Source: Escherichia coli (GTDB taxonomy: Bacteria > Pseudomonadota > Gammaproteobacteria > Enterobacterales > Enterobacteriaceae). Taken from it: a stretch of DNA of 64,000 nt. Every line of letters starts with the position of its first letter. Within the stretch, counting starts at the first letter, position 1. The stretch lies in the NCBI RefSeq assembly GCF_044647545.1, contig NZ_CP172818.1. One strand, given 5' to 3'. Below are positions 20,835 through 20,960 of this stretch, in pieces. The notes beneath the pieces were generated by a model, which was not told the origin of the DNA, searched no databases, and saw nothing but the letters and a program-made list of their open reading frames with translations. The position numbers and the translations under genes were made by a program.

Positions 20835-20960
20835 ATGAATCTTTTAATGCGCGCTATATTCAGTCTGCTGTTGCTTTTTACTCTCTCTATTCCTGTCATT
20901 TCTGACTGTGTTGCAATGGCCATTGAAAGTCGCTTCAAATATATGATGCTGCTTTTTTAA
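20835..20960 (+). CDS. yqfG: small hydrophobic protein (41 aa), probably YqfG
   Basis: ATG 1 nt after the uacT stop, GGAG 7 nt upstream; 41 codons encoding a single predicted TM helix; identity from memory of K-12 small-protein annotation. Confidence 0.45.
   Translation: MNLLMRAIFSLLLLFTLSIPVISDCVAMAIESRFKYMMLLF

Follow-up and report, generated by a model that had tools for sequence, protein, structure and literature searches.

What is made from the short reading frame that opens one base beyond the stop codon of uacT, the urate/H+ symporter gene of Escherichia coli, and what ties it to its permease neighbour? We addressed this question in a stretch of E. coli DNA of 64,000 nucleotides (contig NZ_CP172818.1; hereafter the window). 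A sequence-only reading had described there an ATG one nucleotide after the uacT stop, with a GGAG upstream, opening a frame of 41 residues, and the sequence agrees with this in every detail. On the + strand the junction runs ...GAG CAT GGA GAA TAA T ATG AAT CTT...: the TAA stop of uacT (20831-20833) is separated by a single base, T20834, from the ATG at 20835-20837, and the frame that follows (20835-20960) comprises 41 codons and a TAA (20958-20960), encoding the 41-residue peptide MNLLMRAIFSLLLLFTLSIPVISDCVAMAIESRFKYMMLLF. The GGAG is a Shine-Dalgarno sequence at 20825-20828, 6 nt 5' of the ATG and inside the last uacT codons; purine runs of the same kind (GGAG, GGTGA, AGGA, GAGGA) are present at the equivalent place in the Escherichia and Citrobacter homologues. 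In a mechanical list of open reading frames this frame begins further upstream, at ATG 20817, and is 47 residues long. That ATG, like another at 20823, falls among the final uacT codons and has no Shine-Dalgarno sequence, and the N-termini of the family described below align with the 20835 start.

The frame is yqfG (K-12 b4684, YP_002791254.1), as had been suspected from the letters; it is a genuine gene, already annotated, and its detection here amounts to the rediscovery of a curated one. RefSeq places yqfG at the position equivalent to 20835-20960 in FDAARGOS_497, which is 100% identical, and flags the uacT of that genome as 'frameshifted'; a 401-bp query around the frame covers uacT, yqfG, yqfH and idi as annotated in the 100%-identical E. 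coli records. The genes are arranged alike in K-12 MG1655 (uacT b2888, yqfG b4684, yqfH b4753, idi b2889), with the uacT stop, one base and the ATG followed by yqfH and then idi, and the K-12 YqfG is of the same length. Comparison with the annotated small proteins of E. coli, the check that had been proposed, returned b4684: 40 of the 41 residues are identical, the one change being F3L, and two further changes are synonymous. This substitution, the commoner allele among the YqfG matches of a single-sequence search, and the uacT pseudogene upstream are what distinguish the locus in this strain from that of K-12. The 401-bp query matches 5384 of 5426 complete E. coli genomes, and 5348 of the 5426 at a coverage of at least 80%.

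Might the frame be open merely by chance, an untranslated stretch of the uacT-idi spacer? Short frames are common here, with 56 of at least 20 residues in the 4 kb around yqfG, so that the length of yqfG alone is not beyond chance, and searches of Pfam, NCBIfam and PADLOC yielded neither a model nor a match for it. Against chance stands the pattern of substitution. In five Escherichia sequences (this window, K-12, another E. coli, E. albertii and the cryptic clade) the variable sites are distributed 4/2/18 over codon positions 1/2/3, and dN/dS (Nei-Gojobori) is well below 1, at 0.04-0.17 within Escherichia and 0.10-0.46 in comparisons that include Citrobacter. Synonymous changes are in excess over non-synonymous ones with respect to E. 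albertii (Fisher p = 4e-4) and the cryptic Escherichia clade (p = 1e-4), and between two Citrobacter-type yqfG sequences (p = 4e-7). The family is, moreover, kept down to about 30% identity at syntenic positions, its syntenic members being recognized with HMM E-values of 1e-17 to 1e-23, and there exist both a curated gene, b4684, and published work on its protein (PMC4597795, PMC10470546). On these comparisons the YqfG peptide is under purifying selection, conservation that we take as decisive for a real gene; the conservation data refute the chance-frame reading, to which we now attach a negligible probability. The sequence-only reading had named a lack of conservation in related genomes, together with a lack of any translation signal, as grounds for abandoning the gene, and both conservation and signal are present. 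The assignment of the coding sequence to 20835-20960 on the + strand draws on sequence, translation, RefSeq annotation, purifying selection and codon periodicity together.

The peptide had been likened to a single transmembrane helix, a description borne out by its hydropathy, which reaches a maximum of 2.18 at residues 4-22 (Kyte-Doolittle, 19-residue window), and by an AlphaFold2 model (monomer, with the family alignment as input) that consists of one helix, residues 3-40, at a pLDDT of 83. On both grounds YqfG is predicted to be a single hydrophobic transmembrane helix. A PDB search with YqfG gave chance-level matches (E > 0.1) and no solved structure containing it. Hemm and co-workers are said to have found, in 2008, that protein is made from the chromosomal yqfG of K-12. 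The Weaver 2019 preprint makes no mention of yqfG. An HA-MBP-YqfG fusion has been shown to be integrally membrane-associated, with a topology that TMHMM predicts to be N-in/C-out, and to be cleaved by the site-2 protease RseP, presumably inside the transmembrane segment; the cleavage is modulated by substitutions at I8-F15 that destabilise the helix (PMC4597795), and I8-F15 of the YqfG encoded in the window are identical to the K-12 residues mutated in that study. A later screen (PMC10470546) places YqfG in class I, the most robust class of RseP substrates, by four assays, with cleavage seen whether RseP came from a plasmid or from the chromosome, under two different tags, and with purified enzyme in vitro. 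The YqfG assayed in these RseP studies was tagged and expressed from plasmids. Cleavage by RseP is the sole activity shown for YqfG, and our literature search found no published data on an association of YqfG with UacT or on a functional effect of one on the other.

How widely is the gene distributed, and in what company is it found? A single-sequence search with YqfG gave members in Escherichia and Shigella only. Relatives were found 3' of the uacT homologues of E. albertii, of Citrobacter sp. R56 (54% identity, with a TAA-A-ATG junction) and of Kluyvera (29-31% identity in alignments or tblastn; here the gene has a Shine-Dalgarno sequence to itself, some 70 nt beyond the stop of the permease), and profile searches added C. 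amalonaticus, C. enshiensis and metagenomic members. Among 1.84 billion cluster representatives the family counts 29 (at the 50% identity level), of 38-42 residues. In an alignment of 23 YqfG sequences P20, R33 and F34 never vary, and R6 is found in 22 and S32 and L14 in 21 each; position 25 is G, A, S or C in 22 of them and position 29 G, A or S in all 23, the two together making up a small-xxx-small helix-packing motif.

This alignment bears on the idea that YqfG is a pre-peptide, with residues 1-23 forming a Sec signal peptide that signal peptidase I cuts after V-I-S, an 18-residue periplasmic peptide being freed and RseP clearing the remnant. The Escherichia and Citrobacter sequences have what this needs: R6 makes the n-region positive, the core is hydrophobic, and around the cut there are Pro at -4, V or A at -3, S at -1 and D or E at +1. 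Over the 23 sequences, however, the -1 column contains S in 11, Q in 9, R in 2 and A in 1, and under the -3/-1 rule signal peptidase I does not accept Q or R at -1. No alternative cleavage site is conserved, the most conserved part of the protein (small-xxx-small and S-R-F) resembles a helix-packing surface, and AlphaFold2 returns one continuous helix. RseP does clear remnant signal peptides, and YqfG was chosen for study because of its likeness to them (PMC4597795). With V/A-x-S in Escherichia and Citrobacter but Q or R at -1 in 11 of the 23 family sequences, we rejected the signal-peptide reading as improbable.

The family has a constant neighbour: in every YqfG-family locus examined an NCS2 (Xan_ur_permease) gene lies directly upstream on the same strand. 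The gap between the two is 1 nt in Escherichia (including E. albertii and the cryptic clade), Citrobacter sp. R56, C. amalonaticus and two further loci (L085, L086), and 2-4 nt in four others (L099, L100, L102, L106); in L098 the genes overlap by 1 nt, as TAATG, and in Kluyvera and L104/L105 they stand about 70-88 nt apart. Identity to UacT is as low as 41-48% for the permeases of L098 and L100, and the gene 3' of yqfG varies, being idi, an AraC-type regulator, a molybdopterin oxidoreductase or xdhC/yqeC. An abutted linkage kept over so deep a divergence argues for co-expression of the pair. No YqfG was found after the uacT homologues of C. freundii, Pluralibacter, Serratia oryzae, Morganella, Hafnia, Edwardsiella, Aeromonas and betaproteobacteria; those of C. 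freundii, Pluralibacter and Serratia oryzae are 81-83% identical, and close homologues of this kind indicate that the permease does not need YqfG.

Two observations were made in passing at these loci. The molybdopterin oxidoreductase gene follows distant yqfG-family genes in L104 (2112-4259), L098, L100 and L106, and in some of the distant loci it is called in two pieces (139 and 559 residues), where an in-frame TGA may encode selenocysteine. Hafnia paralvei (L009) has two NCS2 permease genes in tandem (3001-4413 and 4586-5992); the permeases encoded ahead of distant YqfG-like genes have their closest relative (62-64% identity) in the product of the second, after which no YqfG-like frame was detected.

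The arrangement of the junction offers a means of co-expression. Abutment of stop and start, with the Shine-Dalgarno sequence lying under the terminating ribosome, is the layout classically associated with coupling by termination-reinitiation. A scan of the + strand from 19000 to 21700, of limited sensitivity in that it missed any uacT promoter as well, detected no sigma-70-like promoter. The absence of a promoter and the near-abutting stop and start kept across genera make it plausible that yqfG expression depends on uacT transcription, as the earlier reading had proposed. We envisage that yqfG, having no promoter of its own, would be transcribed together with uacT, and that its translation would be coupled to uacT termination across the stop, the single base and the ATG, aided by its own GGAG. 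At the yqfG start the predicted structure does not exceed that of shuffled sequence (z = 0.63), and independent initiation at GGAG-N6-ATG is therefore possible.

In this strain such coupling would be disturbed. The uacT gene had been read as frameshifted, and alignment to K-12 located the cause: the gene (19395-20833, + strand) is a pseudogene through a 10-bp deletion between 20482 and 20483, in keeping with the 'frameshifted' annotation in FDAARGOS_497. Direct repeats of GCTGG flank the deletion, as would fit an origin by replication slippage. The shifted frame ends at TGA 20487-20489, leaving a truncated UacT of 364 residues; this premature stop overlaps an ATG (20489-20491) as TGATG (20487-20491, + strand), and the ATG is in frame with the last 114 UacT residues and runs to the normal stop. 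Translation of UacT would thus end 345 nt upstream of yqfG and the coupling would be lost. In the stretch exposed after the premature stop, about 20500-20700, C exceeds G (C/G 1.2-1.6), which makes Rho-dependent polarity possible, and such polarity could lower yqfG expression in this strain; an exception would be ribosome restart at ATG 20489, by which traffic up to yqfG would be restored.

We estimated the frequency of the lesion with a 100-bp probe across the junction, requiring a match of at least 99%. The deletion allele is present in only 46 of 5350 complete E. coli genomes, all others having the extra 10 bp, and its carriers include MS6198, IMT16316 and ECONIH1, which we take to be ST648. 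By this distribution the lesion is recent and clonal, so retention of yqfG in the deletion lineage is uninformative as to selection. The lineage does provide a natural experiment, in that translation of the upstream permease has been removed and yqfG left intact, and it could reveal to what extent a small gene relies on the upstream neighbour that it tightly abuts being translated. An independent uacT frameshift, near codons 107-111, is seen in one cryptic-clade Escherichia genome (L087/L088; about 2369-2384 of L087); uacT is intact in its nine sister genomes and yqfG in all ten.

Downstream, 13 nt after the yqfG stop, lies a stable, conserved stem-loop without a U-run (20973-21007, + strand). 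The 91-nt stretch that contains it (20950-21040) folds at -26.7 kcal/mol, with z = -5.1 against shuffles, and of the 11 consensus pairs of the stem-loop in Escherichia and Citrobacter 6 show compensatory changes. Kluyvera has a canonical terminator at the equivalent place after yqfG, the hairpin was not found downstream of the distant family members, and no Rfam match came near the gathering score between 19000 and 21700, the stem-loop included. Its probable role is to mark the 3' end of the uacT-yqfG transcript, or to stabilise or protect that transcript. We considered and rejected a leader-peptide role, in which translation of yqfG would control the hairpin and idi: the peptide is itself under selection, and the distant members are without the hairpin. 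The constitutive idi promoter, TTGTCG-18-AATCAT (PMC3946193), is found at 20999-21028 and overlaps the 3' arm of the stem-loop. Written across the hairpin on the - strand is yqfH (20957-21028), an annotated gene of 23 residues, at 3032939-3033010 in K-12 (PMC6001520), which is convergent with yqfG and overlaps its stop by 4 nt. Neither E. albertii (L003) nor another E. coli (L081) retains the yqfH frame, whereas both retain the hairpin.

This convergence brings to mind type I toxins. YqfG would then be a hydrophobic toxin-like peptide restrained by antisense transcription from the yqfH side; it resembles the Hok, Ldr and Ibs peptides in size and hydrophobicity, yqfH does overlap the 3' end of its gene by those 4 nt, and several Hok toxins are also RseP substrates (PMC10470546). 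The same paper, however, reports growth inhibition for Hok proteins and employs YqfG as a routine control substrate. Type I toxin genes have their own promoter and leader and an antisense RNA antitoxin; for yqfG the scan of 19000-21700 showed no promoter of its own, and it has no long leader; it comes last in a permease operon in all genera, and the yqfH frame is not maintained even in E. albertii. We therefore set the toxin aside as very improbable.

What remains is, in our view very probably, a genuine gene for a 41-residue single-helix inner-membrane protein, co-expressed with uacT and linked to the permease. As to what the protein does, we suppose that YqfG is most likely a small subunit, accessory or regulatory, which would act at the permease or together with it, and that RseP would set its turnover. 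A more specific form of this proposal, that the YqfG family serves the NCS2 urate-type permeases of purine-catabolic clusters as a dedicated single-helix subunit, accessory or regulatory, made in fixed proportion through the coupling of stop and start and removed by RseP, we advance tentatively, as possible rather than probable. It is likewise possible, with a probability short of even, that YqfG is a small membrane protein in its own right, which the position behind the permease merely supplies with transcription and whose function, for instance occupancy or modulation of RseP or a general role in the membrane, is unrelated to urate transport. That cleavage by RseP is the one activity shown (PMC4597795, PMC10470546) suits such independence, as do the existence of close uacT homologues without yqfG and the integrity of yqfG where uacT is broken, in this window and in L087/L088. 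The uacT frameshifts, however, are of recent or sporadic occurrence, the one seen in 46 of 5350 genomes and the other in 1 of 10 sister genomes, so that the survival of yqfG beside them says little, and adjacency to an NCS2 gene in all loci examined, despite permease identities of 41-48% and differing downstream genes, is hard to explain by shared transcription alone. The NCS2 linkage across divergent bacteria gives YqfG a concrete functional hypothesis; if the subunit proposal is true, YqfG would be the first small-protein partner described for the NCS2 transporter family.

Known proteins offer two comparisons. As a substrate, YqfG is like remnant Sec signal peptides, RseA, FecR and HokB in offering RseP a short hydrophobic segment, predicted for YqfG to be N-in/C-out, with a tiny periplasmic part (PMC4597795, PMC10470546). 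It differs from the remnant signal peptides in being the product of a free-standing gene rather than a by-product of secretion, and in that a signal peptidase site is not conserved in its family. As a putative partner of a permease, it recalls the small single-helix proteins that accompany larger membrane proteins, AcrZ with AcrB, KdpF with KdpABC, MgtS with MgtA and CydX with CydAB. All are, like YqfG, of about 30-50 residues and a single helix; they have no sequence similarity to YqfG, and some close UacT homologues occur without it. The genes of KdpF and CydX lie in the operon of the large membrane protein that they bind, and yqfG, with its conserved operon linkage to an NCS2 permease and the small-xxx-small packing motif of its product, shows the adjacency to and co-orientation with a large membrane-protein gene that characterize an operon-encoded subunit; by analogy with KdpF and CydX, this suggests a role for YqfG at the permease.
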